Positions 31,601-53,081 of a stretch of DNA of 64,000 nucleotides are shown here, in pieces. Each line of letters begins with the position of its first letter. Position 1 is the stretch's first letter. A program made the position numbers and the translations under genes. Under the pieces are notes generated by a model. The model saw only the letters and a program-made list of their open reading frames with translations, was not told where the DNA came from and did no database searches. The DNA lies in the IMG/VR virus record IMGVR_UViG_3300027734_000045, positions 32,001 to 96,000 of that record; one strand, 5' to 3'. The DNA is from a virus.

Positions 31601-34600
31601 GCTCAGTCAAGGTCGAGCAGGGAGAACTTGATGGCAAGCCTGTCACCTACACCAGGATGATAGACGGCGCTAAGAGTGACCTAAAGGATAAGCTATCAGA
31701 CAAGTTCTACATGAAGCAGCTGCAGGAAGGCTTTGCGGTTGACGCTCTTCTTGCCAACTGGGACGTGGCCGGCCTAGAGTACGACAACGTGGTATCTGAC
31801 GCAGAGGGACTTCCTGTTCGCGTTGACCCAGGAGGCGCGCTTCTGTTCCGCGCTCAGGGAACTCCAAAGACAGACGACCAGTTCAATGAAAACGTACCCG
31901 AGCTGGACACCTTTACCGACAAGAACAGCTCGCGTCCTGCCGCCAAGATATTTAGCTCGATGACTGCAAGTGAAAAGTTGGACTCCGCGGTAAAGCTTAG
32001 TGACCTAGACGATGACGTTATCGATAACTTGGTGAATGAACACATCTCAGATGAAGCCGCGGCAGATAAGCTAAAGAAGCTCCTCAAGGCCCGTAGGGAC
32101 AACATCCTAAGCAAACTAGTATCATCTAAGGTATTCGAAGACGAGGCCTCTAAGCAAGGCGAGAGCAGCGAACCGGACGAGGAATTCCCGCCGTACGCCT
32201 ATGGCGAAAAGAAGTCGCACTCTGAAGGTGACCGAGTTGACGTGCTGTGGGACCCTAAAAATGGCGTAGAAATGACAGGCGAGGTCGTGTCTGGTCCAAC
32301 TGAAGACCAGATGTATAAGATTAGGCTCGATGACTCAAAGGTTAATGGCGACCAGGCTGGCAATGTAATAACTGCTAACATAGTGTCTCTTCGTCCAGAG
32401 CAGGCAAAGCCAAACTTTGATGAAGACGAGAAACCTGCTGCAGCTCCTGAGGTGAAGACCTCTACAGGCGAGCTAAAGCCTGGAGACAAGGTTGTCTACA
32501 AGGACGGCTCAACTGGAACTATCGTCAAGGCGGACAAGAACCCTAAGTACGTTCACGTTGCGATGGACAGCAAGGGTGGAAAGCTTCAAATCAAGGCTCT
32601 AAGCAAGTTGACCAAGGTCGAGAGTGCGCCAGACGAAAAGGCAGCGCCTGCTCTATCTCCATCTGGTAAGAAAATCGTTCCTAAACCTACTGCCAAGACT
32701 GTGCCAACGAAAACTGAGCCAGAGCCAGCAGCGGATGCAGACGCCACCTCCACTGGATTCACTAACTTCAAGGACGCGAACGGCGTCACTTGGTCATCGT
32801 CCATAACGCAGAAGTCCAATGGCGACACTGTAATTAAGTGGGATGGCACTAACGGAGAAACGTTCCCGGTCTACCTAGAGTTAGATAGCTTTGCTGGTAC
32901 TTGGAAGGTAATGAAAACTGACTGGGCAGGACATCCGTTTTTAGTAAAGGACACCTGGGACTCAGACAGCGCCGGGGCTCTTAACTTCGTGGCCAATGAA
33001 ATTAAAGGCGGCCAGGGCGCGACAGACGACCTTGGAGATGAGCCGTCTATAGTTCCACTGAAGCCAGTTGGCAACGACATGCTTGCGTTCAACGACGGCA
33101 ATGGAACAACCTATCCCGAGCTGCCTTCAGTAGTGCTGCTAAAGGACCCTGACTCTGCAGACTCTAACCCAAAGTATTGGATTCAAATTGAGCCTGCGGC
33201 AGACCAAAACTGGTCGCCATTTGAGGACCACATGAGCTCTCCCGCCACTCGTTCTCTTGCCGAGGCGATTAGCATAGTCAACTCTCATCTAAAGAATAAG
33301 GGAGTTACTAAGGAAAACGTCGATAGTCAAGTTGGAGACAAGGAAGTTGTAAAGTGGGACGTGTACGGTCCTGGTCTAGTGACAAGCAACGTGGACACCA
33401 AGGCCTTAGCTGAAACCGGATTGATGTCTCCAGTCGACCCGACTAAGCCGATGTTTAGGGTTAAAGAGACTCCTGAAGGGTCGCTGGACTTGGTAATAGT
33501 TCCGCCTGACACTAGCGGACTGGACTTAACTGCTATTACAGTTCCTGACTCTGAATCGCTTGACGTTGCCGTCTCGGAGGCTCTGGCTGCCGACTACAAG
33601 GAGACAAGCAACTATACGCCAAATGAAAAAGAGATTAACTGGATTCAGGCGCTTAGTGGAAACCACCTCAAGGACACGTCTAAGTGGGACGTAGATATGC
33701 TAAAGAATGCGTCATCAACTGGCACCGATGTAACTAAAAGTGGCAACGCTGGAGACGGCTACATCGTAGACTCTAAGCAGAGGCCAATAGGTAAGGGAGA
33801 ACTTGTAGTTCTGTCTGACGGTAGAACTGGAATATTAGCCCACGTAGGTCTTCCAGATGGAGAGATAAAGTACGACGCTCCTCAACCTACCGCGACAATT
33901 GTTTTTGCCGATGGAAGCACTGAAGCTGTAGACTCAGACAAGATTAGAGGTATTGGAAGATCTCTCTCGATGGGTTACAACGCAGGCAGTGAGCTAACTA
34001 GAATTAAGAGACGCTATGAGCTGCAGAACATGGAGAAGACAGGAGTGGACCTTACTCCTGAGCAAAAGGCCGCGGCGGCTTCTAAACCGTTCTTTACTGG
34101 TCGAATCGTGAAAGACGCGAAGGGGGAGGAAGGCTTTATCGTCGAGGATAAGGGAGACGGCTACTTCAAGGTCCAATTTGGCGATGGCCACATCAAGTCA
34201 AGAGCCGGAAGTAAGCTCACCGCGACCGATAAACAGGTTAGGGACTACAACGGTCTAATGTACACAGCTACCCACGTTAGAAAAGGATACGTCAAAGGCC
34301 TAATGAACTACGGGCAGACTGGCGGAGAGGGACTCGCAGTCCCGGTTCAACTTTCTGACCCGGGACAGAAGACCACTGCCGCTGGAGTTTCATACGGCAA
34401 CGTGAAGGTTACCAAGAACGCGCTTGGAGCTCAACAGGTTGTTGTCGACAACCCGTTGCCTCCAACTGAGTCCGGCTTTACCAGCATCCCATCTCTCTCA
34501 ACGGCCGTAGAGACAACGCTAAACCCTGACGACCCGCAGGCCGCTCTTAGAGGAGCCTCCGCAGCCTGGGACTCAGACTCAATTGAGGACCTAGACGTTA

Positions 34601-36543: not shown

Positions 36544-39500
36544 ATGGCAAAAATAGCAGGGTACAATTCTTCTCTAGTTCTTTTGGTTGAAGGCGAGAAC
36601 GCAGTCGTCGTTGACACCAGCAAAAACCTTGTGGTGGACTCTGGAACTAAGGAGGCTCTAGCCTCAAAGAAAAATTGGAAAAAGAGCAAGAGCTGCGAGG
36701 TTACTCCAGCGATGCTAGAGATAGCAGACGCAGCACTTTCGTCTCTAGACGTTTCGGTTATCACCGCGGCTGCTGGTAGACTGTACACTGTCCCTAGCTC
36801 AGTGCAGGCAGAGGCAAAGAAGGCGCTTGAGTGGCGCAAGGAGCACAAGCGCGGCGGAACTCCAGTCGGTCTAAGCACCGCGCGCACTCTTGCCAAAGGC
36901 GGTCAAATTGGACTTCAAAAGGTTCGTCACATCGCGAAGTACTTCCCTCGTCACGAGGTAGACAAAAAGGCTAAGGGCTACGAACGCGGTGAAGACGGAT
37001 TCCCGTCTAATGGCCGCATTGCCTGGGCTCTCTGGGGTGGAGACGCCGGTTGGCGCTGGGCAAAAAACATCGTTGAGCGTGAGAACAAGAAGGCTCTTAC
37101 CTCTGATGGATACGCTCTTCCGGGATACTCAATAGACGACGACACCTACGCTATTAGCGAGCCTGGCTACGGAGCAGATTTAAACGCATTTGGAGACGCG
37201 CACGCGTTAGACGATGGCGGTCCTGAGTTCATGGCTCGTGTTCGTATGGATGGCTCCGGCATGGACCGTCTATACAAGGTCGACGTCGATGGGCGTGTCT
37301 ACTTCTGGGATGACGGAGGCTGGGACGACCTAGGCTCTATCGATGGAGACATTTACTTCTACGACAAGTCTCTTGATGACCCGTATGACGACTGTGATAA
37401 GTCTCACTTCATAATCGACCCTGACTCGGCGCTAATTATTTCTGCGCTTCTTCAACAGGACCCGTACACCAACGTGTCGGTTGATGACATCGACTCACAT
37501 GAGGCCTCTCTTGCTAGAAACGCCATCGCCGAAGAAGACTGGGGCATGGTTGACCGAGTTGCGCGGGCGAGCGACGAAGACCCTTACTATCCGATGATGG
37601 CAGCCGCGGCTATGCCGGTAGACAAAGAAGCAGAAAAAGAGGAAGCTCCTGCTCCTGCCGTAGACACTAAGGGAATCTTAGGAGAGCCACATAAGGAGGA
37701 CAACGCTCCTGCCGCTAAAATCGACAGTGAACTTCCTGCTCTTACCGCAAAAGACCTTGGCCTAATTCTAAACGACTGGCCTGGTTGGGTTATGGACCAG
37801 AGAAAGACCACGACTGAGCAAGGACTAGTTGCACAGCGCACGACTACCTCCGATGACTACTCAGTCAGCGATTCAGTAGACACGGACAAATCCTATGAGC
37901 ACCCTCTACTAAAGCCTTGGCTAGACAAAAAGGCCGCTGGCATCTCAACAAAGTCTACTGATAACCCGGCGCTACTGTCTGCCGCTGAGCCAGTCTCAGC
38001 TAAGCCTACAACAGTAAAGGACATAGAAGAGGCTGCCAAGGAGACAAAACCTGGCTCCGAGGTCACTCCTGGCAAAACAGACGTGCAACCTATGTACCTA
38101 GCATTTGTTTCTCCTGATGACCCTCACGCGGTGTTTGACCTTATTGCACTTGTTCCAGCGAGCTCAACCTCTAACCAGCCGATGACATACCGTCGTCAGG
38201 ATAAGAAATGGGTGCGCTATCCAAGTGCTCTGCAGGACCTAAAGTCAGCTACTCCTCCGCCAGTCGTGCCTCTTGATAAGGAAGCACTGGACGCTACTCT
38301 AAAGCAGATTGACGGCATGTACGAAGCACTAAACGCGTCAGTGTTTTCAGTTGACCACCAGCTGATGGTGCTTTGGGGTCCAAGCGCTGTACGCATGGAA
38401 GACGCGCTGGTCGCCGCAGGTGGAGTAGACAAGAACCGCGGCAACGCGGAAAGACTCCGCAGGTACTGGTCTCACGGCAAGGGAGCAGCTAAGATTCGCT
38501 GGGGCACAAAGGGTGACTGGTCTCGCTGTGTTCGTCATCTGTCTAAGTTCCTTGGAGTTAGAGCTAAGGGATACTGCCAGTTGCGCCACAAGGAAGCAAC
38601 CGGCATGTACACCGCTACTCACGCCAAACTCGACCGCGCAAAGCATAACTCAAATTCAGAGTTTATTATGGAAGAGGTCTACGCTAAGAACACGGGAGTT
38701 CCGACTGCTGTGACTGAGCAGGACATGGCTAAGAAGTTAACCGAAATCATGGTTGAGCACGACGACGTGTACGACCACCACTGGAAGCCTGAGCCACAGA
38801 TTGTCGATGACCTAAAGAGGCTAAATCTTCTAGACGACGAAGAGTTCGAAGCGATAGTTGCGGCTGGAGGTTTTGACAGAAACCGCGGAAACGCAGAAGA
38901 GCTTCGCCGTTATTGGACTGTAGGCAAGGGCGCTAAAAAGATTCGCTGGGGAACCGGTGGAGATTGGACTAGATGTGTTAGGCAGCTGTCTAAGTACCTA
39001 GGCCCACGCGCTAAGGGATACTGTCAACTTCGTCACAAGGAAGTGACTGGTGAATACACCGGTGACCGAGCTCACATGGAAAAGTATGGCCATCTAAAGA
39101 AAAAGACCTGGCGCGACCGTCTAAAGCTATTTAGCATCGAGGAAAAGGTTATTGAACTTGCCGAGCGAGACGCACTGGCAGCAGGCCTACGAGAGAGAAT
39201 GGGTCTCACTGCTTCAGCGGTAGAGACAGGCGCGGGTTCGGCGTTTAGAATTCCATTGGCAATCCCAGAGGACGTCGAGTCTGGTGACGGCCGTCTATTC
39301 AAGAAGGACTCAATTACTGTTCGCGAGTTGCCTATCCCGCTTCTATGGCAGCTAAAGACAGGAGAGGGCCACAGTGGCTCTGTTGTAGTTGGTCGCGTCG
39401 ACCGTCTTGAAAGAGTGGAAAACGGTATCGGAAATGCCTATGGTGTTTTTGATGACGGCAAGCATGGCAAAGAGGCTGAACGCCTTGTTCGTGCTGGCTT

Positions 39501-40572
39501 CCTTCGTGGAGTGTCAGCGGACATGGACCAGTTTGAGGCAAAACAAACTAAAAGCAAGAAAAAAGATGCTGCTGAGGACGACGACATCTCCGCTGAGAAA
39601 ATCGTTATAAATAAGGCCCGTGTCATGGCCATTACAATAGTACCTAAGCCAGCATTTCAGGAATGCAAAATTCTTATCGACTCCGATGAGCTAGAAAATC
39701 CCCAGGAGGAAATTATGATTCTAAACGATGGAATCTATGTCGACGATGTCGACGCAAGTGACGCAGCTGCACTGGTTGCCTGTGGAGCAGTTGCTGGATC
39801 GATTCCAGTAGTGCCACCGGCTAACTGGTTTGTAAACCCTAAGCTGTCTAAGCCGACTCCGCTAACTGTCGACGACAGTGGTAGAGTATTTGGTCACATT
39901 GCCGCTTGGCACGTTGACCACATCGGCTTGACCGCGGGTACTAAGCCACCGCGCAGCAGAAGCAACTACGCGTACTTCCACTCAGGAGTTGTCCGTGCCG
40001 ATAATGGCAAGGACGTGCCTGTTGGCCAGTTGACACTCGCTGGTGGACACGCATCTATCGAGGCAAGTGCCTACGACGCAGTCAAGCACTATGATGACAC
40101 AGCATCTGCCGTTGCAGACGTGCACGCTGGAGAAGACGAGTTTGGAATCTGGGTTGCAGGAGCTCTACGTCCTAGCGCGCAGCCGGAGCAAATTCGTGCA
40201 CTTCGTGCTTCCGCTCCTTCAGGTGACTGGAGACCAATCAAGGGCTCACTTGAGCTTGTTGCAGTGTGTCAGGTAAACGTTCCTGGATTCCCAATTGCAC
40301 GAGCACGCGTTGCCTCAGGTCAGGTTATGGCCTTGGTTGCAGCTGGTGCAGCGGTTCTTGCTAAACTAAAGCAGGACCCAATGACAGAACTGGCCTCCAG
40401 AGTACGTGAACTCGAGCAGTTTACTGGCAAGGAGCTTGCAACCAACGCGGCCAGTGCCAAGGCAAGATTCGCGTCTATCGTTGACGAGATGCCAAGCAAG
40501 AAGCCTGTGACTGCAAGCGTGGACTCCATGAGAGCCAAGATTGCAGCCGCCCAGGAGGCCCTGGGAAAATAG
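36544..40572 (+). CDS. Capsid maturation protease, multidomain
   Basis: C-terminal ESGDGR...VVGRVD...GVSADMD...PAFQEC...GHIAAW...SGDWR...VNVPGFP as in actinophage prohead proteases; sits before the capsid genes; duplicated LRRYW...KIRWGT module. Confidence 0.75.
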   Translation: MAKIAGYNSSLVLLVEGENAVVVDTSKNLVVDSGTKEALASKKNWKKSKSCEVTPAMLEIADAALSSLDVSVITAAAGRLYTVPSSVQAEAKKALEWRKEHKRGGTPVGLSTARTLAKGGQIGLQKVRHIAKYFPRHEVDKKAKGYERGEDGFPSNGRIAWALWGGDAGWRWAKNIVERENKKALTSDGYALPGYSIDDDTYAISEPGYGADLNAFGDAHALDDGGPEFMARVRMDGSGMDRLYKVDVDGRVYFWDDGGWDDLGSIDGDIYFYDKSLDDPYDDCDKSHFIIDPDSALIISALLQQDPYTNVSVDDIDSHEASLARNAIAEEDWGMVDRVARASDEDPYYPMMAAAAMPVDKEAEKEEAPAPAVDTKGILGEPHKEDNAPAAKIDSELPALTAKDLGLILNDWPGWVMDQRKTTTEQGLVAQRTTTSDDYSVSDSVDTDKSYEHPLLKPWLDKKAAGISTKSTDNPALLSAAEPVSAKPTTVKDIEEAAKETKPGSEVTPGKTDVQPMYLAFVSPDDPHAVFDLIALVPASSTSNQPMTYRRQDKKWVRYPSALQDLKSATPPPVVPLDKEALDATLKQIDGMYEALNASVFSVDHQLMVLWGPSAVRMEDALVAAGGVDKNRGNAERLRRYWSHGKGAAKIRWGTKGDWSRCVRHLSKFLGVRAKGYCQLRHKEATGMYTATHAKLDRAKHNSNSEFIMEEVYAKNTGVPTAVTEQDMAKKLTEIMVEHDDVYDHHWKPEPQIVDDLKRLNLLDDEEFEAIVAAGGFDRNRGNAEELRRYWTVGKGAKKIRWGTGGDWTRCVRQLSKYLGPRAKGYCQLRHKEVTGEYTGDRAHMEKYGHLKKKTWRDRLKLFSIEEKVIELAERDALAAGLRERMGLTASAVETGAGSAFRIPLAIPEDVESGDGRLFKKDSITVRELPIPLLWQLKTGEGHSGSVVVGRVDRLERVENGIGNAYGVFDDGKHGKEAERLVRAGFLRGVSADMDQFEAKQTKSKKKDAAEDDDISAEKIVINKARVMAITIVPKPAFQECKILIDSDELENPQEEIMILNDGIYVDDVDASDAAALVACGAVAGSIPVVPPANWFVNPKLSKPTPLTVDDSGRVFGHIAAWHVDHIGLTAGTKPPRSRSNYAYFHSGVVRADNGKDVPVGQLTLAGGHASIEASAYDAVKHYDDTASAVADVHAGEDEFGIWVAGALRPSAQPEQIRALRASAPSGDWRPIKGSLELVAVCQVNVPGFPIARARVASGQVMALVAAGAAVLAKLKQDPMTELASRVRELEQFTGKELATNAASAKARFASIVDEMPSKKPVTASVDSMRAKIAAAQEALGK
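40563..40569 (+). other. Putative -1 frameshift slippery site G GGA AAA
   Basis: Correctly phased X XXY YYZ heptamer immediately before TAG; -1 frame open to 41126. Confidence 0.75.
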
Positions 40573-41126
40573 TTGCGGTTGAGGCCAGCGCAGCTGGACT
40601 TATCAACCAAGAAGGCGATAAGTACAATGCAGACACTCAACCGCGGGACATCAAGGGAAAGTTTAGAACAGTGCTAGCACGTCTAAAGCAAGACCTAGGT
40701 GTCGCCGGCCTTGACGCGGCTGTTAAAAAAATTGCCGAGGCAGAAAACATAAATAACGCCGGCAACTACGTAGAGGCTGCGGCTCGTGCAAACGACGTCA
40801 TAAGTCTCGTCGACCGTGTTCATAGTGGAGCCCTAACCGGTCCGTCACTAGAAAACATTAGAGAGTCAGCTGGTGCTCTTGGAGCTGCGATGGCCAACCT
40901 GCCATTGCCGTTTGGTCAAGAGAACCAAAAGCTGGCATTCAGCGATCTTCCTCCTTCACTGAAGAATCTTGTGAAAAGCATGATTCCAAGGGTAGAAGCG
41001 AGGATAGGAGATAAAGACGCGCGAAGTGCAATCAAGCCTTTGCAAGACTTTATGTCAGGCGGAGCACTGTACAGTCAGAGCCAATTATCGGCCGAGATGA
41101 ACACTTTACTCCGGTTGCTTACTTAG
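40569..41126 (+). CDS. -1 frame extension of the protease (IVAVEASAAG...QPRDIKGKFRTVLARLK...); includes track ORF 40671-41126
   Basis: Frame open from the slippery site; no clear SD before GTG 40671. Confidence 0.7.
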   Translation: MVAVEASAAGLINQEGDKYNADTQPRDIKGKFRTVLARLKQDLGVAGLDAAVKKIAEAENINNAGNYVEAAARANDVISLVDRVHSGALTGPSLENIRESAGALGAAMANLPLPFGQENQKLAFSDLPPSLKNLVKSMIPRVEARIGDKDARSAIKPLQDFMSGGALYSQSQLSAEMNTLLRLLT

Positions 41127-41245
41127 AAGCAATATACAATAATGTACTAGGTGGAGCGCCTACATGCAAACGCGTGGAGTCCCTTTACCTTGAACTAACA
41201 AGTGGTAAGTGAAATACACTTACTCAACTGTCCTTAGGAGGAACA

Positions 41246-43291
41246 GTGGACCAGATTAAGTCACAGGTAGACAACCTGGCTGACCTTAGCGACGAGCAAG
41301 TCGCTGAGCTCCAGGCATCTATCATCAGTGAATTCGAATCGGTCGAGGGTCAGGAACCTACTCCACAGACTGTTGACGCTATGACTTCGCTCGCAGACAT
41401 GCTTGACACCGTCCGCGGTGAGACCAAGCGTCGCGAAGCAGCTACCCAGGAGCTTGCAACGCAAGCCGCCGAGGCTGCTATGCGTGTTAAGGGCGAGGAA
41501 GAGGCACCAGCTGACGCTGAGGCATCCCATGAGGAAGCACCAGAAGAAGTTGGAGAGACTCCTGAAGAGGAGAAGAAGGAAGACGAGATGACTGAAGAGT
41601 CAGCTGTGTATTCTGCCGAAGCCGCTCAAGAAGCATCAACAACTGCTGAAGCCGGAACCGACGAACCTGTCGCCGATGAAGAAGTACCCCCAACCGAAGA
41701 AACACCTAGTGCTCCTCAAGAAGAGCAGAAAGAGCAGGCCCCAGTGACCGCTTCAGCAGAAGAGAGCTTCCAGGCTCCAGCTGACCGCCAGCCTGTAGTC
41801 GAAGTTAAGGAAGCAAAAGTGGCAATCACCGCTGGCGCTGACATTCCTGGCTACACCGCCGGCAGCACCATCGACAACCTAAGCGAAGTAGCTTCAGCTA
41901 TGGAAAAGCGTATCCACTCGCTTCGCCGCGTTAACGGAGGAGACGGAGAGCAGCACATCGTTGCGTCCTTCACCACCGCGTACCCAGAGTCACGCACTCT
42001 AACAACCGACGCAGAGTCAAACTGGACCAAGATTCAGGCAGTCGCGGGACCTGAGGCACTTGTTGCTTCTGGTGGTCACGCTACTCCATTCGAGGTCAAG
42101 TACGACATCTTTGCAATCGGTTCTACCACCATTCGTCCTATTCGCGACTCTCTACCTCGCTTCCAGGCTGACCGTGGCGGTATCCGTTTCATCACTCCAC
42201 CTAGCTTCGCTGGCGCAACATACGACAGCGCAGTTGGTATCTGGACAGCCGGTGTTGACCAATACGGAGCAAACGGACTAACTGCATTGTCACTTAGCGC
42301 GACTGCAATTTCTGGTAGCTCAGGTGCATACGTAATTGGTGTAACTAACAACACTATTCCAGTTGGCGCAAAGGTAACCTTTGGTACTATTGGAACTGCT
42401 ACTACACTAAGTAACATCACAGCTAACGTGACTGCGTCAACAAGCACCACTATTACCATCGACACCACAACTGCTATTTCAGGCACTCCGTCTTCCGGTA
42501 CCGTGTCTCCTGTAACAGTGAAGGGCTCATACACTGCATCTGCAGCTTCTGAAAACACCGTTGCAACTGACGCTGTAACACTACAGCTACAGTTCGGTAA
42601 CTTGATGTCTCGTGCTTACCCAGAGTTGATTGCTCGTCACAACGAACTTGCTCTAGTACAGCACGCTCGTGAAGCTGAGGACAACCTGTTGGCTAAGATC
42701 AACGCGGGTTCTACTGCAGTCACCACGCAGACCAACCTTGGTTTTGCTCGTGACTTCCTAGTTCAGGTGCGTCGTGCAGCTATGGCTTACCGTTCACGTC
42801 ACCGTATCGATCCTCAGACTCGTCTGAAGGCAATCCTTCCGGTGTGGGTTTACGAGGCAATGGCAGCTGACCTAACCTTGGCAATGCCAGGCGACGGCAC
42901 TCTAGCTGTGTCAAAGTCAGAGATCGATGGTTTCCTATCGGCTCTAAACGTTGACGTTGTCACTCACCTAGACGACAGCTCAAACAACGGTGTATTCGGT
43001 ACCCAAAGCGCCGGTGTACTGCTCGAGTTCCCGGACACCTTCCGTTGGTTCTTGTTCGCTGAAGGAACATTCTTGTTCCTAGACGGCGGAACTCTAGACC
43101 TAGGTATCATCCGTGACAGCTCTCTAGTTGGCACAAACGACTACAAGATGTTCATTGAAACATTCGAGAACGTTGCAAAGGTTGGTATCGAGTCTCTAGC
43201 GATTACCTCAACCATCAACGTATCTGGTGCAGCTGCGGCTCTTGTAACTGCAACATCAACAACATCTGCTGCTACATCTAACGACCTGTAA
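41246..43291 (+). CDS. Major capsid protein (hexamer-type) with N-terminal acidic scaffold-like region
   Basis: SD AGGAGG; ALVASGG...RGGIRF...LFLDGGTLDLGIIRDS.L..TNDY..F.ETFE resembles cluster-B-like actinophage capsid. Confidence 0.85.
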   Translation: MDQIKSQVDNLADLSDEQVAELQASIISEFESVEGQEPTPQTVDAMTSLADMLDTVRGETKRREAATQELATQAAEAAMRVKGEEEAPADAEASHEEAPEEVGETPEEEKKEDEMTEESAVYSAEAAQEASTTAEAGTDEPVADEEVPPTEETPSAPQEEQKEQAPVTASAEESFQAPADRQPVVEVKEAKVAITAGADIPGYTAGSTIDNLSEVASAMEKRIHSLRRVNGGDGEQHIVASFTTAYPESRTLTTDAESNWTKIQAVAGPEALVASGGHATPFEVKYDIFAIGSTTIRPIRDSLPRFQADRGGIRFITPPSFAGATYDSAVGIWTAGVDQYGANGLTALSLSATAISGSSGAYVIGVTNNTIPVGAKVTFGTIGTATTLSNITANVTASTSTTITIDTTTAISGTPSSGTVSPVTVKGSYTASAASENTVATDAVTLQLQFGNLMSRAYPELIARHNELALVQHAREAEDNLLAKINAGSTAVTTQTNLGFARDFLVQVRRAAMAYRSRHRIDPQTRLKAILPVWVYEAMAADLTLAMPGDGTLAVSKSEIDGFLSALNVDVVTHLDDSSNNGVFGTQSAGVLLEFPDTFRWFLFAEGTFLFLDGGTLDLGIIRDSSLVGTNDYKMFIETFENVAKVGIESLAITSTINVSGAAAALVTATSTTSAATSNDL

Positions 43292-43305
43292 AAAGCAACG
43301 TCTTT

Positions 43306-48474: not shown

Positions 48475-48816
48475 ATGACAGCAAATAGATTCAAAGACTT
48501 TGGCTCTGGAGTATCAGACATCACAAAGGAACCTCTTGTATTTAAGCTCTATGGAGAAGAATACAGATGCATGCCTAACGTTCAAGGAAAAGTTATGCTA
48601 GAACTTGTGGCCGACTCTTCCTCTGAGGACCCAGCGGTCTCAGCAAGAACACTTGCAACATTTTTTAGCAAGGTACTTTTAAAGGAAGACCTTGAAAAGT
48701 TTAACGAGCTTCTCGACAGTCAGGACAAGATTGTCTCAGTTGAGACTCTAAGCGAAATCAGTGCTTGGCTTATTGAACAGTACACTTCACGCCCAAATCA
48801 GCAGCCAGAGGTTTAG
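48475..48816 (+). CDS. Tail assembly chaperone (G)
   Basis: Upstream of tape measure; slippery C CCA AAT at 48792-48798. Confidence 0.8.
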   Translation: MTANRFKDFGSGVSDITKEPLVFKLYGEEYRCMPNVQGKVMLELVADSSSEDPAVSARTLATFFSKVLLKEDLEKFNELLDSQDKIVSVETLSEISAWLIEQYTSRPNQQPEV

Positions 48817-49223
48817 CAGGCTGGGCAATAGACCTCTGGCACATAGTTAACGGAAGAGCACTAGTGAATGGCCTTAGATTAGCGGACATGGATGCCGCAG
48901 ACATGCTAGATGTCATTCACTACTTCTTCGACCAGGACATAAACTACGCATCGGGCGAGCAGGCGGAGGCGCACTCTCAGGTGCGTTCCGCTATGTATAA
49001 GGATTTATACAACATAGAGTACAAGTATGGAGTTAGCAGTAAGAACTCCAACAAGTACAGTTCTACTACATACGTAGCTGACTTCGACCTAGAGGAAGAA
49101 GAGCTAAAGCCTGTAGACCCAGTGAAAAAAGCAAGAGAAGTAAAGCCATACGTTGCTCCTACTACGGTCGACGTAGATGGAAAGCGCCCCTTTGGCTCGA
49201 TGCTAGACGCGCCATTAGCTTAG
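48792..49223 (+). CDS. Tail assembly chaperone -1 frameshift extension (GT)
   Basis: -1 frame open from CCCAAAT through track ORF 48864-49223. Confidence 0.75.
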   Translation, partial: PKSAARGLAGWAIDLWHIVNGRALVNGLRLADMDAADMLDVIHYFFDQDINYASGEQAEAHSQVRSAMYKDLYNIEYKYGVSSKNSNKYSSTTYVADFDLEEEELKPVDPVKKAREVKPYVAPTTVDVDGKRPFGSMLDAPLA

Positions 49224-49241: not shown

Positions 49242-52200
49242 GTGGCCGGTAACATAGTCGGTAGTGCTTATGTGCACATTCATGCCATAACCAAAGGCAT
49301 TGGTAGAGAAATTGAAGAAGGTCTAAATAAGACCAAGGTCAACACTACCGGCGCAGGCAACATCGGCAAGAAAATTGGCGACACAGTTTCTAAGAGCATC
49401 AGCGATGGAATGACTGGTGGACTAAACAGAGGAAGCGGACAGGCGCTCGCGGCGCTTCGTAAGACTCAAAATGAGGCTGCTAGAATGCAGCAAAAGTTTA
49501 TTAGCAACGCTAAAAAGGGTCCTAAGTTTCTTGACGCTCTAATCGAGCCAGGCTCTGCGGTATTCCAGGAAGTTAAGCAGGCTAGAGAATCCTTCAATCA
49601 ACTTACCAAGTCCGGTATGAAGATGACAGCTATCATTGGAACTGTAATCACGAGCGTGTCAGACCTAGTCATTGGACTTGGAGCTCTTATCTTTGGTGCC
49701 GCTGCAGCAGCTCCAGCCTTCGTGGCTCTTGCTGGAGTCTTTATTCAATTCAAACTTGGAATGCTTGCCACCAAACTTGCCATGCAGGGAGTTATGGAGG
49801 CTACCGGAGCTCTCTGGAAATCGCAGACCGCGCTGAATGACTCCTTCCGGGCGGCACGTCTTGAATTTAGAAATCTAAAGTTCGAGGCAGAGGGTGCAGC
49901 CTACGCAGAAGAAGGAGCAGCTCTTGCACTGCAGCAGGCTAAAATCGCGTTGCAAAGAGTTCAGGACCTTCCGCCTAATACTCAGGCAAGACGCCAGGCT
50001 GAGCTTGCGTACAAGCAGGCAGACCTATCATATAGACAGGCTATCGACAAAACAAAGGAAGCCACTCGCGCGGTAGATAAGGGTATTACCGCTACTCAGG
50101 CTTACCAGCCATTTGCCTCGCTAACTAAGACACAGCTTGCGTTTACTAAGTTCCTCGTGACTCTCCGTCCAAAGATGCAGGAGCTTCGTGGAATAGCGGC
50201 TGACAGCTTTATTCCTGCACTGCGAGACGGAATCAGCACTCTTGTTAATCGCGACTTTGGAATGTTTAAGACAGGAATTGGAAATCTGTCGAAGGGAATG
50301 TCAGGACTAGTAAAAGGTCTATTTGGCGCCTTTGACGACCCTAAGTTTAAAAAGAGTCTAAGCCAGGTTTTCGCTGGAGCAGGAGATACCTTACCTAAAC
50401 TAGGAAAAACCTTTGGAAACGTATTTAAGCTTATAATGACGTGGGTTTCCGCCGCGCAACCTCTTATCAAAACGTTTAGTACCTGGCTTGAAAAGACCAC
50501 GGGAAATGCGTCTAAGCTATTCCAGTCTAAGAAGGACAGCGGAGAGCTTACTAAGTTCTTTGAAAACGCGGGAGTAGTCGCAGCTAAGCTCGGCGCTATC
50601 ATTAAAAACGTATTTACGATGCTTAACAGCTTTACCAAGGCTAACGCCGGACCAGGCTCTGGCGGGCAAATGCTTCTCGACTGGATAAAGGACGTATCCG
50701 GAAAGTTCGCCGAGTGGACAAAGTCCGCGCCAGGACAAAAGAGCCTGTTCTCCTACTTCAAGGATGGCGCCGCTAACTTCAAGCAGATGTCGCAGACAAT
50801 CGGAAAGTTTATCAAGCCGCTATTCACGATGGCCGGTGACCCAGACATCAAGCAGATGTGGGCAACAATTGGAGAGGCTGCTCCTAACTTTGAAAGTATT
50901 CTAAAGAAGACACGCGAGGCAGCTCCCGCGATGGGAAGACTAGTCAAGCAAATCATTCGAGTAATCGACACCTTCACAGACCCAGGGCAAATCAAGGCGT
51001 TCTTTGACACGTTCACTAAAGCGCTAAAGATGGTTGGAGACTTCTTCAATCAGCCGTGGGTCAAGAGCATTATGACTTGGCTTGGTCCAATAACTGGTGT
51101 CCTGCTTGCGCTAGGAACAATCGGCTCAGTTGGACAAAAAGTCTTTATGGCCTTGGCCGGTCACATACAGGTGTTTGCCTCTCCAATGAAAAAGGCTATT
51201 GGGTACTTTACCGAACTAGATACTGGTATCATGAAGGTTGGAAGACACAGCAAGGCTCTTGACACTCTTGCCGCGCCTTCGGACGCGCGGTTTAGTAAGA
51301 TAGCTCGTGCAGGTAGACGAACTGAGTACATGGCACCTACAAGCAGACGCGCCATCAAGGAAATCACTGGGCAGGGTCTAGCGATTGGCAAGGCAGACGC
51401 GATGGCTGGAATGCCGATGACGTCAGTTCGCGCAGGCAGCAGAAAAGAGCTTAAGGCGTTTAGCCAAGGACAGAGTCTTGCTGCTGGCTCAGGTCCACTA
51501 ACTTACGCTAAGGGAATTCCAGCTACAGACGCAGCCACTACTGGATTCCAAAGAATGGGTATCGCTGCTAAGACCGCGCTGCGTGACATTGGCAAGGGCT
51601 TTGGAGCTCTAGGCGGAATGCTAAAGAGAAACTGGGTAATCCTAGCCATTGCCGCCTTGGTCGTGGCACTTGTTGCGTTGTACAACAAGTCTAAGGACTT
51701 CCGCGACCTTATGAACACCTACATGAACAGTGTAGGCAAGGTTCTTATGAAGACCTTCAAGAGCATCATGATAGCTCTACAGCCGTTGATCGACGCGTTC
51801 ATGGAGCTGTTTGATGCTTTGTTTGGTGGAGAAGGCGGAGGAGGCGGCTTAGTAGGCATGCTTCTGACTGCACTTAAGCCTGTTCTTGGAATAATTATTG
51901 GCGTTATAGCTACAGTGCTTCAAGCAGTGGCTCCACTGATCGTTCTACTGGTCAAGGTGCTAGTTCCAGTTCTAACCTTTATAGTTGACATCATCACCGC
52001 CTTGGTCAACGGAATAAACCTTGTCGTTGGCGGAATACTTTCTATCTTTGGAGTAAAAAACGACATGGGCTCTGTAGATTCAACTAGCAGTCCTGACCTG
52101 ACCGACGTCACCGAGAAAAATAAAGTTGACTGGGCGCAAATAAACAAGGACCAAAAGGAAGCTGCCACTCGTCAAATGGAAGCCGCTAACCAACAGTTAG

Positions 52201-53081
52201 AGGCTGCCAAGGGAACTAAGGACAAGGGAGACGACAAACTAGCGGCAGCGTACGCAAACGCTGTAGAGATGCAAAACGTTCAGAAATCAAGCGCGTTTGA
52301 GCAACTAATTTACTACTTTGAAAAGTCTAAGAGCGAGACCGACCCGACCAAGGTTCGCGCACAGCAGGCTAACATGATTGCTATAGCTAAAAAGATTCCT
52401 TTTGCTACGGCAGACATAAAGCGACTTAGTGGAGCTAAAAACACCGAGGAAGCTGCCTTTGCGGCGTACAAGGCTGCACTGGCCAACTTTAAGAAAAACT
52501 CCACCGATGAAAACGCAAAAGTAGTCGCGCAAAAACGGCTTGTCACCCAAAACGCAAGATCCACCTATCAAGGACTTCGCAGTCAGCTTACCACTAAATA
52601 CGCTAGATACTCTATAGACCCTGCTACCGGAAACATCATAGACAGAGACGCTGGCGGCGCGCCGGTTGACACTGCTTCGACTCCTACCACGTCTTCTTCT
52701 TCACCAACTGGTACAAAAACTAGCACTGCTAAGACCACGACCACGACCACCGCGGTTCCTACCGCTGGTTCTGTTGACTGGACCGCCATAAACGCCCAGT
52801 TGACGACGCAGAACGGCACGCTAGTAAGCATAAAGGAAAACATCGAGGGTGGAAATAGGCTTCTTAAAACTCTAGTCACTCTAGGCAAGGAAGACGCCAT
52901 CAAGCAGACAACTCTAACCACGTTGTACGCTGCTGGATTTGGATTGACCCAGAGTGCATACCCGGTGATTACGATTGGCGGAAAGAGAATGGGAATTTCT
53001 GAAACAAATGCTCTATCCCAGAATGTCCTAGGACTTTCTTACCAGGCCGTTTTAGACAGAACTGATGAGTACGGACGCTAA
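49242..53081 (+). CDS. Tape measure protein
   Basis: Long helical Ala/Lys-rich ORF with hydrophobic segments after chaperones; VGSAYVHI start; SD AGGAGGTGA. Confidence 0.9.
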   Translation: MAGNIVGSAYVHIHAITKGIGREIEEGLNKTKVNTTGAGNIGKKIGDTVSKSISDGMTGGLNRGSGQALAALRKTQNEAARMQQKFISNAKKGPKFLDALIEPGSAVFQEVKQARESFNQLTKSGMKMTAIIGTVITSVSDLVIGLGALIFGAAAAAPAFVALAGVFIQFKLGMLATKLAMQGVMEATGALWKSQTALNDSFRAARLEFRNLKFEAEGAAYAEEGAALALQQAKIALQRVQDLPPNTQARRQAELAYKQADLSYRQAIDKTKEATRAVDKGITATQAYQPFASLTKTQLAFTKFLVTLRPKMQELRGIAADSFIPALRDGISTLVNRDFGMFKTGIGNLSKGMSGLVKGLFGAFDDPKFKKSLSQVFAGAGDTLPKLGKTFGNVFKLIMTWVSAAQPLIKTFSTWLEKTTGNASKLFQSKKDSGELTKFFENAGVVAAKLGAIIKNVFTMLNSFTKANAGPGSGGQMLLDWIKDVSGKFAEWTKSAPGQKSLFSYFKDGAANFKQMSQTIGKFIKPLFTMAGDPDIKQMWATIGEAAPNFESILKKTREAAPAMGRLVKQIIRVIDTFTDPGQIKAFFDTFTKALKMVGDFFNQPWVKSIMTWLGPITGVLLALGTIGSVGQKVFMALAGHIQVFASPMKKAIGYFTELDTGIMKVGRHSKALDTLAAPSDARFSKIARAGRRTEYMAPTSRRAIKEITGQGLAIGKADAMAGMPMTSVRAGSRKELKAFSQGQSLAAGSGPLTYAKGIPATDAATTGFQRMGIAAKTALRDIGKGFGALGGMLKRNWVILAIAALVVALVALYNKSKDFRDLMNTYMNSVGKVLMKTFKSIMIALQPLIDAFMELFDALFGGEGGGGGLVGMLLTALKPVLGIIIGVIATVLQAVAPLIVLLVKVLVPVLTFIVDIITALVNGINLVVGGILSIFGVKNDMGSVDSTSSPDLTDVTEKNKVDWAQINKDQKEAATRQMEAANQQLEAAKGTKDKGDDKLAAAYANAVEMQNVQKSSAFEQLIYYFEKSKSETDPTKVRAQQANMIAIAKKIPFATADIKRLSGAKNTEEAAFAAYKAALANFKKNSTDENAKVVAQKRLVTQNARSTYQGLRSQLTTKYARYSIDPATGNIIDRDAGGAPVDTASTPTTSSSSPTGTKTSTAKTTTTTTAVPTAGSVDWTAINAQLTTQNGTLVSIKENIEGGNRLLKTLVTLGKEDAIKQTTLTTLYAAGFGLTQSAYPVITIGGKRMGISETNALSQNVLGLSYQAVLDRTDEYGR

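Follow-up and report, generated by a model that had tools for sequence, protein, structure and literature searches.

Here we describe the 3' end of a head protease gene of an uncultured freshwater phage, at which ribosomes very probably change reading frame. The window, that is, the whole stretch of DNA that was analysed, comprises 64,000 nucleotides (nt) of the 121-kb IMG/VR virus record IMGVR_UViG_3300027734_000045 (positions 32,001 to 96,000 of that record). Within it, the open reading frame (ORF) of a head polyprotein with a prohead-protease region ends on the heptamer G GGA AAA, and we consider it highly probable that a real programmed -1 frameshift at this heptamer joins the protease ORF to a frame of 185 codons. 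A shift at this site had been proposed in an earlier examination of the window (the original prediction), and it is supported by conservation of the heptamer and of a downstream stem, by selection on the -1 frame, and by intact independent contigs. The core of the argument is that the domain encoded in the -1 frame is under strong purifying selection where a slip is its sole route to expression, so ribosomes must shift. Judged from sequence, the same cassette is present in two polarities: in most phages a slip would remove the domain, and in the window a slip would make it. That ribosomes do shift at this site, and how frequently, we infer from sequence comparisons.

In the mechanism that we propose, the cassette (40563-40644) would consist of the slippery heptamer, a 5-nt spacer, and a 9-bp stem that closes a structured loop of 52 nt. 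Without a slip, ribosomes would end at TAG 40570 and release a head polyprotein of 1342 amino acids (aa) with the C-terminus ...EALGK. Ribosomes slipping one base back on GGA-AAA would read on through ATA GTT GCG into a helical domain of 185 aa, with a predicted trans-frame product of 1342 + 185 = 1527 aa; as an alternative, the slip could take place on AAA with the stop codon waiting in the A site. We suggest that a large family of freshwater actinophages inherited the cassette from its ancestor. Most members have it within a continuous gene, where the slip would meet a TGA four codons on and cause truncation, and the loss of one spacer base in the lineage of the window, and independently in contig L064, would have swapped the two outcomes.

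The protease ORF, the heptamer and the -1 frame

The features of the site are as follows.

36544..40572, + strand: 0-frame ORF of 1342 codons, head polyprotein with prohead-protease region; TAG at 40570-40572.
40553-40558, + strand: AGGAGG, similar to a Shine-Dalgarno (SD) sequence, 4 nt upstream of the heptamer and kept in the related contig L006.
40563-40569, + strand: slippery heptamer G GGA AAA; the protease ORF reads it in X XXY YYZ phase, with 0-frame codons GGA and AAA.
40569..41126, + strand: predicted -1 frame extension of 185 codons plus stop, from ATA 40569 (IVAVEASAAG...); ends LLRLLT.
40570-40574, + strand: 5-nt spacer TAGTT, containing the 0-frame stop and one base below the 6-nt spacer of continuous-ORF relatives.
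40575-40583, + strand: 5' arm of the conserved 9-bp stem, GCGGTTGAG.
40584-40635, + strand: interior of the structure, 52 nt with two predicted inner hairpins.
40636-40644, + strand: 3' arm of the stem, CTCAACCGC, in the T-Q-P-R codons of the conserved TQPRD motif.
40671..41126, + strand: gene-caller ORF from GTG, 151 codons; starts inside the QPRDxKGKFRxVLARLK block.

The protease ORF closes with GCC CTG GGA AAA TAG, and re-reading of the window letters bears out the phased heptamer in CTG GGA AAA TAG and the AGGAGG element, both of which the original prediction had pointed out. The sequence GGGAAAA is not enriched in the window (8 copies vs 10.1 expected). A heptamer alone is thus at chance level, and this one gains significance only from being in phase, from where it lies and from being conserved among relatives. 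The open stretch of the -1 frame extends from 40485 to TAG 41124-41126, in agreement with the 185 open codons described earlier. It contains no ATG, GTG or TTG from 40485 until GTG 40671; the stretch encoded upstream of this GTG includes IVAVEASAAGLINQEGDKYNADTQPRDIK, and IVAVEASAAGLINQEGDK... would be a peptide stretch of the shifted product. The AGGAGG at 40553-40558 may modulate the shift.

The junction and selection on the -1 frame

The arrangement recurs in L006, a contig of 1222 nt from another metagenome with 86% protein identity to the window. Its junction is the same (...CAGGAGGCC CTG GGA AAA TAG), the -1 frame continues without a stop into the domain, and the same GTG is again its first canonical start. 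Between the window and L006, the whole domain has 0.845 synonymous substitutions per synonymous site (dS) and a ratio of non-synonymous to synonymous rates (dN/dS) of 0.085. The same layout at this dS indicates that the arrangement is old.

A one-base frame difference beside a homopolymer could also come from an assembly or sequencing indel, or mark a gene that has recently died, and DSL-LC01, the closest named relative, has another apparent frame break in the same gene. We find this explanation scarcely credible, given that L006 keeps the layout at the divergence and constraint stated above. In addition, Logan contigs from four runs in four studies span 40563-40572 without an inserted or missing letter. 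X1 possibly represents the source sample, X2 and X4 are exact where they cover the site, and X3 has 8 substitutions, which lie outside the site, and no gap. The original prediction had named reads with an indel fusing the frames among the findings that would speak against it, and there is no indel in X2, X3 and X4, which come from other studies. The junction did not arise by an error of assembly.

The window and L006 were also compared over the stretch of 34 codons that leads from the heptamer to GTG 40671. Here the -1 frame has 10 synonymous and 6 non-synonymous substitutions and a dN/dS of 0.127, and the other two frames have dN/dS values of 2.3 and 2.0. Low dN/dS in the -1 frame only argues that the stretch is translated in that frame. 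These values bear on a second explanation, in which translation is confined to the 151 codons from GTG 40671 and upstream conservation reflects RNA structure. Gene callers do start at this GTG in the window and two relatives (P0001-P0003; P0003, 85% identical and called from the same GTG, was counted as a hint only), and the conserved stem occupies part of the stretch upstream. However, substitutions across 40569-40670 are coding-like in the -1 frame only, and GTG 40671 lies inside a block that every stand-alone or fused homologue retains. We therefore hold this explanation to be very unlikely. Since the QPRD block in which the GTG lies is nearly invariant, the 151-aa gene-caller ORF is truncated, and it is probably an artefact of the requirement for a start codon. 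Gene callers cut the extension to 151 aa or split the gene, and annotation pipelines thus need a rule for the site.

Conservation of the heptamer in relatives

Relatives were collected from the best 80 of 241 IMG/VR matches and from named phages, which gave 65 unique domain sequences with the following layouts.

Continuous ORF with the heptamer: 27 of 65.
Domain in the -1 frame: 3 of 65 (the window, L006 and L064).
Continuous ORF without GGGAAAA: 27 of 65.
Domain encoded separately, with a start codon of its own: 7 of 65.
Cut by the contig end: 1 of 65.

Counted alternatively by 500-nt DNA context, there are 67 unique contexts. The junction motif xGK[A/T]xA[V/A]E is present in 33 of the 67, and all 33 spell it NNG GGA AAA. 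The codon before GGA AAA varies (CTG in 13, ATG in 11, TTG in 6, GTG in 2 and GCG in 1) and always ends in G. Background usage in the same ORFs is 37.6% GGA among Gly codons, 28.5% AAA among Lys codons and 19% G at third positions. Other Gly-Lys (GK) dipeptides of these ORFs are encoded by GGA AAA in 7 of 255 cases and by G GGA AAA in 2 of 255, and for a GK dipeptide situated 11 codons further on, only 2 of 23 contexts use GGA AAA. The original prediction had proposed to check homologues for the heptamer and for the -1 frame, and both are conserved: the heptamer is present in 33/33 contexts with the junction motif, and the domain has a low dN/dS between the window and L006.

The gene is continuous in 30 of the 33 contexts with the xGK junction, with no stop directly after the heptamer. 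A stop directly after the heptamer is accordingly not general: it is absent in these 30 and comes one codon later in L064. Every continuous relative has a TGA in the -1 frame four codons past the heptamer, so that a shifted product would end in the tail GK[S/N][I/T]SG. A looser pattern scan of IMG/VR gave at least 117 matches; among the matches listed, the spacer is 6 nt in all 32 family members, and no further inverted example was seen. A search of IMG/VR with the exact-junction pattern returned no match.

A conserved downstream RNA stem

RNAalifold predicted one helix in an alignment of 27 sequences, a 9-bp pairing of GCGGYTGAG with CTCARCCGC. The 5' arm begins 6 nt past the heptamer, and 5 nt past it in the window and L006. 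In full context, the fold of the window has a minimum free energy of -30.2 kcal/mol, with z-scores of -3.7 (98 nt) and -4.4 (81 nt), and the stem reaches 11 bp if two G-U pairs are included. Across the 27 sequences, 99.6% of the cells in the stem alignment are paired, and pairing falls to 24-42% when the 3' partner is slid by 1-3 columns. In 5 sequences one pair is C-G in place of U-A, both partners having changed. The 3'-arm codons ACT CAR CCG CGN are present in 33/33 heptamer contexts, whereas the Pro codon CCG is found in only 5/34 contexts without the heptamer, one of them (L014) cut at the heptamer position. As the 3'-arm codons are fixed only alongside the heptamer, the heptamer and both arms travel as one module.

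The original prediction had named another stem, AGTTGCG/CGCAGCT at 40571-40595. These letters are present and can form 7 pairs, including one G-U (40571-40577 with 40589-40595), but this is not the stimulatory structure. It folds only when the RNA is cut at 40640, and in full context the long-range stem takes its place; it was rejected as the stimulator on this ground and because it is unable to form in L006.

The stem and the phase of the heptamer also bear on transcriptional slippage, in which RNA polymerase would add an A in the A4 run and a share of the messenger RNAs would be in frame. The resulting product would be identical. Four A's are much shorter than the runs known to slip, and slippage leaves unexplained why a phased heptamer should need GGG and why a stem should lie at 5-6 nt, and we give it very little credence. 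Homopolymer A runs are known to act as RNA polymerase slippage sites, which Sharma 2014 mentions for AAAAAAA (PMC4066793).

Reversal of polarity

Comparison with continuous relatives indicates how the two polarities are related. In L004 the junction reads CTG GGA AAA GCA TTA GCG GTT GAG, encoding LGK AL AVE. In the window it reads CTG GGA AAA TAG TT GCG GTT GAG, which gives LGK and a stop in the 0 frame and (GK) IV AVE in the -1 frame. The alignment of LGK-AL-AVEA in L004 with LGK/IV-AVEA in the window indicates that homology is continuous across the shift, and that the window is one spacer base short.

L064, a contig of 116.7 kb that is about 55% identical to the window and belongs to an LGKASAAEF subtype, has reached the same state in another way. 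It reads CTG GGA AAA GCG TAA C GGCTGAG and is also one base short, at a different position from the window. Here the 0-frame stop lies one codon after the heptamer and the domain is in the -1 frame; the fold has -31 kcal/mol and a z-score of -3.0. On the domain tree the inverted state requires two changes, with L064 placed within the main cassette clade. The approximately unbiased (AU) test does not reject a tree in which all 31 cassette rows form one clade (p-AU 0.377), and a single origin of the cassette is neither shown nor rejected. Homologous genes carrying the same cassette in both polarities amount to a natural experiment, and together with the purifying selection that the domain retains where it can be reached by a slip alone, they provide unusually strong comparative evidence for shifting.

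Several observations nevertheless weigh against a frameshift at this site. The inverted polarity is known from three contigs of two lineages only, and the window and L006 are placed, with weak support, on a long branch separate from the main cassette clade. Covariation is limited to one stem pair and may reflect a single evolutionary event, so the support from it is thin, and 7 of the 9 pairs are invariant and thus silent on structure either way. The window has a short spacer of 5 nt, which is reduced to 3 nt if the two G-U pairs form. Of 40 unique cassette contexts, 24 have an SD-like 5-mer within 25 nt upstream, at 12 nt in 13 cases, and 16 have none, and the 4-nt gap between AGGAGG and the heptamer is not the 10-14 nt of the dnaX stimulator. 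Finally, AGGAGG stands 10 nt ahead of ATA 40569 and both are kept in L006, so that weak independent initiation may occur in this lineage.

The last point belongs to the alternative that the original prediction had itself raised, initiation at ATA 40569 by way of AGGAGG, to which re-initiation after the overlapping TAG may be added; either would express the domain with no frameshift. A separate domain gene with its own ATG or GTG does exist in L001, L051, L068, L078, L079 and L083. On the other hand, ATA is a very poor bacterial start codon, and the explanation fails for L064, which has the split layout yet no ATG, GTG, TTG or ATA ahead of the QPRD block. It is also silent on continuous ORFs, in which the fixation of heptamer, spacer and stem at synonymous sites would be left unexplained, and the junction aligns residue by residue with fused relatives. 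Taken together, we judge initiation without a frameshift to be unlikely and prefer the -1 shift at G GGA AAA.

Other heptamers at the same boundary

Among the 33 unique contexts without GGGAAAA, 14 carry an in-phase A AAA AAA or A AAA AAG; QPRD follows at 37-67 nt, and the -1 frame stops 1-2 codons past the heptamer. Some of them, for example L075 and L086, have a stem with its 3' arm in the QPR codons, echoing the main cassette. In-phase A AAA AAA or A AAA AAG was noted in L027, L031, L032, L038, L040, L046, L049, L055, L065, L061, L075, L086 and L083.

Five cultured Microbacterium phages, all with the gene annotated as continuous, also have a candidate heptamer at this boundary, followed by a -1 stop 1-5 codons later. 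Pumpernickel (L002, 4509) has A AAA AAA and Cece (L206, 364) has C CCA AAA, both 55 nt before QPRD, and A3Wally, Big4 and Zooman (L205, L207, L208; 358) have C CCA AAA 61 nt before it. A predicted hairpin starts 7 nt downstream in Pumpernickel, A3Wally, Cece and Big4 (z about -2; -0.2 in Pumpernickel).

These cases suggest a wider generalization, which we advance tentatively and hold to be slightly more likely wrong than right. A shift at the boundary of protease and domain would be old and general in this lineage of large actinophages, which includes Microbacterium jumbo phages of soil as well as phages of fresh water, with G GGA AAA, C CCA AAA and A AAA AAA/G as interchangeable heptamers. 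It might be tens of percent efficient, its default would flip by a one-base deletion, and it would act as a stoichiometry switch for the tail-bearing protease per procapsid. The cultured SEA-PHAGES relatives (Pumpernickel, A3Wally, Cece, Big4 and Zooman) make the switch directly testable.

The 185-aa domain

Metagenomic homologues of the domain number 248 at an expectation value (E) of <=0.001 among 1373 candidates. All end in LLRLLT and have in common the nearly invariant block QPRDxKGKFRxVLARLKQDLG. The domain is flanked by the protease and the major capsid gene in the window and in all relatives, and across lineages it is fused, frameshift-linked or a separate gene. Its structural model is all-helical with low confidence (predicted local distance difference test score, pLDDT, 59.6).

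The 185-aa frame matched no Pfam or PHROG family, and no PDB sequence profile below E 0.4; the C-terminal 450 aa of the protease had no PDB sequence-profile match either. The low-confidence model of the domain had 0 fold matches in BFVD at E<=0.001, and the domain fell into no named protein-atlas cluster (best score 0.88). Prediction of a complex between capsid protein and domain, run without controls, scored 0.00 and speaks neither for nor against binding. The placement of the domain, its predicted helices, the LLRLLT end and the varied linkage fit a scaffold-like or capsid-targeting module. From this we infer a module of that kind, whose dose relative to the protease would be set by the shift; if so, the shift sets the amount of protease that is packaged. 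In the original prediction, a minority of the protease molecules would carry the domain, and the domain would be cleavable.

Gene identity and neighbourhood

The probable identity of ORF 36544..40572 as a head protease polyprotein rests on matches to head families. It matches phrog_18402, head maturation protease, at E 9.5e-56 over aa 1086-1318, and phrog_859 at E 5.4e-95 over aa 904-1317; PHROG head-maturation-protease and related head families cover approximately aa 904-1318 of the polyprotein with E from 5.4e-95 to 5e-05, the latter value belonging to a second head-maturation-protease model. The Pfam match to Peptidase_S78 has 18 bits and lies under the 21-bit cutoff. GenBank relatives of the ORF carry the annotation capsid maturation protease. 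Among named phages, megablast found no match to 39000-43300.

The next gene downstream is the following.

41246..43291, + strand: major capsid protein gene, 681 codons; phrog_777 major head protein, E 5e-79.

Its homologue in DSL-LC01 is annotated as major capsid protein. In the capsid protein, about 95 aa of conserved helical sequence at the N-terminus are followed by an acidic low-complexity stretch that varies and then by a conserved core, and the phrog_777 match is limited to aa 421-672. The N-terminal region resembles a built-in delta or scaffold domain, and a delta-like N-terminus would bear on the amount of separate scaffold that the phage needs.

Two further features of the polyprotein were noted. 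At about aa 600-850 it contains two tandem modules of about 65 aa (AAGG.D.NRGNAE.LRRYW..GKGA.KIRWGT.GDW.RC...L.K.LG.RAKGYCQLRHKE.TG), which match phrog_6439 (unknown function) in two stretches at E 1.3e-42. In DSL-LC01 (Actinomycetia phage, OQ999401, L001), the homologous polyprotein is annotated as three coding sequences. The first break, at about 1851-1908, falls in the middle of a conserved segment, with ...PMYLAIV in one frame and SPDDPRAVFDL in the next, and the window is continuous where DSL-LC01 breaks (PMYLAFVSPDDPHAVFDL). The break in DSL-LC01 may stem from an indel made in sequencing, or it may mark another site of recoding.

Comparison with known systems

The mechanism is that of a classical -1 cassette, and what appears to be new is its location in a prohead protease gene. 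The original prediction had stated that no prohead protease frameshift was known to its author; likewise, our full-text literature search, which left supplementary SEA-PHAGES annotations outside its scope, found no report of frameshifting in such a gene. Passages of PMC8008677, PMC13313380 and PMC4066793 contain no description of it. Recoding in phage heads has previously been described for capsid genes, and in tails for chaperones.

In dnaX of E. coli, which encodes tau and gamma, a -1 frameshift takes place at a heptamer that is in phase and is followed by a stem-loop. The family in its usual polarity is similar, in that shifted ribosomes would stop within a few codons, giving a long form and a C-terminally truncated form. 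The heptamer differs (A AAA AAG in dnaX, G GGA AAA here), and so does the gene, a phage head protease polyprotein. Further differences are the SD-like element, which is found upstream in the 24 of 40 family contexts given above, and the reversed polarity of the window, where the shift would extend the protein by 185 codons.

The -1 frameshift between the tail assembly chaperone genes G and GT of double-stranded DNA phages was reportedly described by Xu, Hendrix and Duda in 2004. As there, the slip in the window would take place near the end of an ORF and extend the C-terminus by a sequence that lacks its own start, and the same heptamer serves in actinophages. The passage on the Microbacterium phage Bush gives GGGAAAA as the tail-chaperone slippery sequence (PMC11749239). 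The passage on mycobacteriophage TM4 does so as well (PMC4626039), in agreement with what the original prediction had said of mycobacteriophage tail chaperones. In contrast to G/GT, the site here concerns the head and not the tail, and another gene, and the family has homologues with both parts in one frame. The site lies in the protease gene beside the capsid gene, not in the chaperone pair of the window (48475-49223). The presumed pair (48475..48816 and 48864..49223) lies upstream of a tape-measure-like ORF of 1279 codons (49242..53081). An in-phase C CCA AAT occurs at 48792-48798, six codons before the stop of the first chaperone ORF, and the -1 frame from it runs open into ORF 48864..49223. 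To judge from the letters, 48792-48798 looks like a canonical frameshift of the G/GT type.

Capsid frameshifts are known from gene 10A/10B of T7 and from gp5A/5B of Lactobacillus phage A2. As in these, a gene for a head structure would yield a minor extended form through a -1 slip on its last codons, although the gene there is that of the major capsid protein. We know of no polarity-reversed homologues of the T7 and A2 frameshifts.

Nested protease and scaffold genes are found in lambda (C/Nu3), in P2 (gpO) and in herpesviruses (UL26/UL26.5). By sequence and fold (Pfam, PHROG, PDB profile, BFVD), the 185-aa domain has no likeness to a known scaffold. The likeness lies in the layout: one locus just upstream of the capsid gene would give the protease with and without a helical assembly domain. 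The nested genes achieve this by internal in-frame initiation, with a common C-terminus, whereas here the products would have a common N-terminus and the choice would be made by the frameshift. The functional logic is probably the same, namely a fixed dose of protease relative to the assembly or targeting domain.

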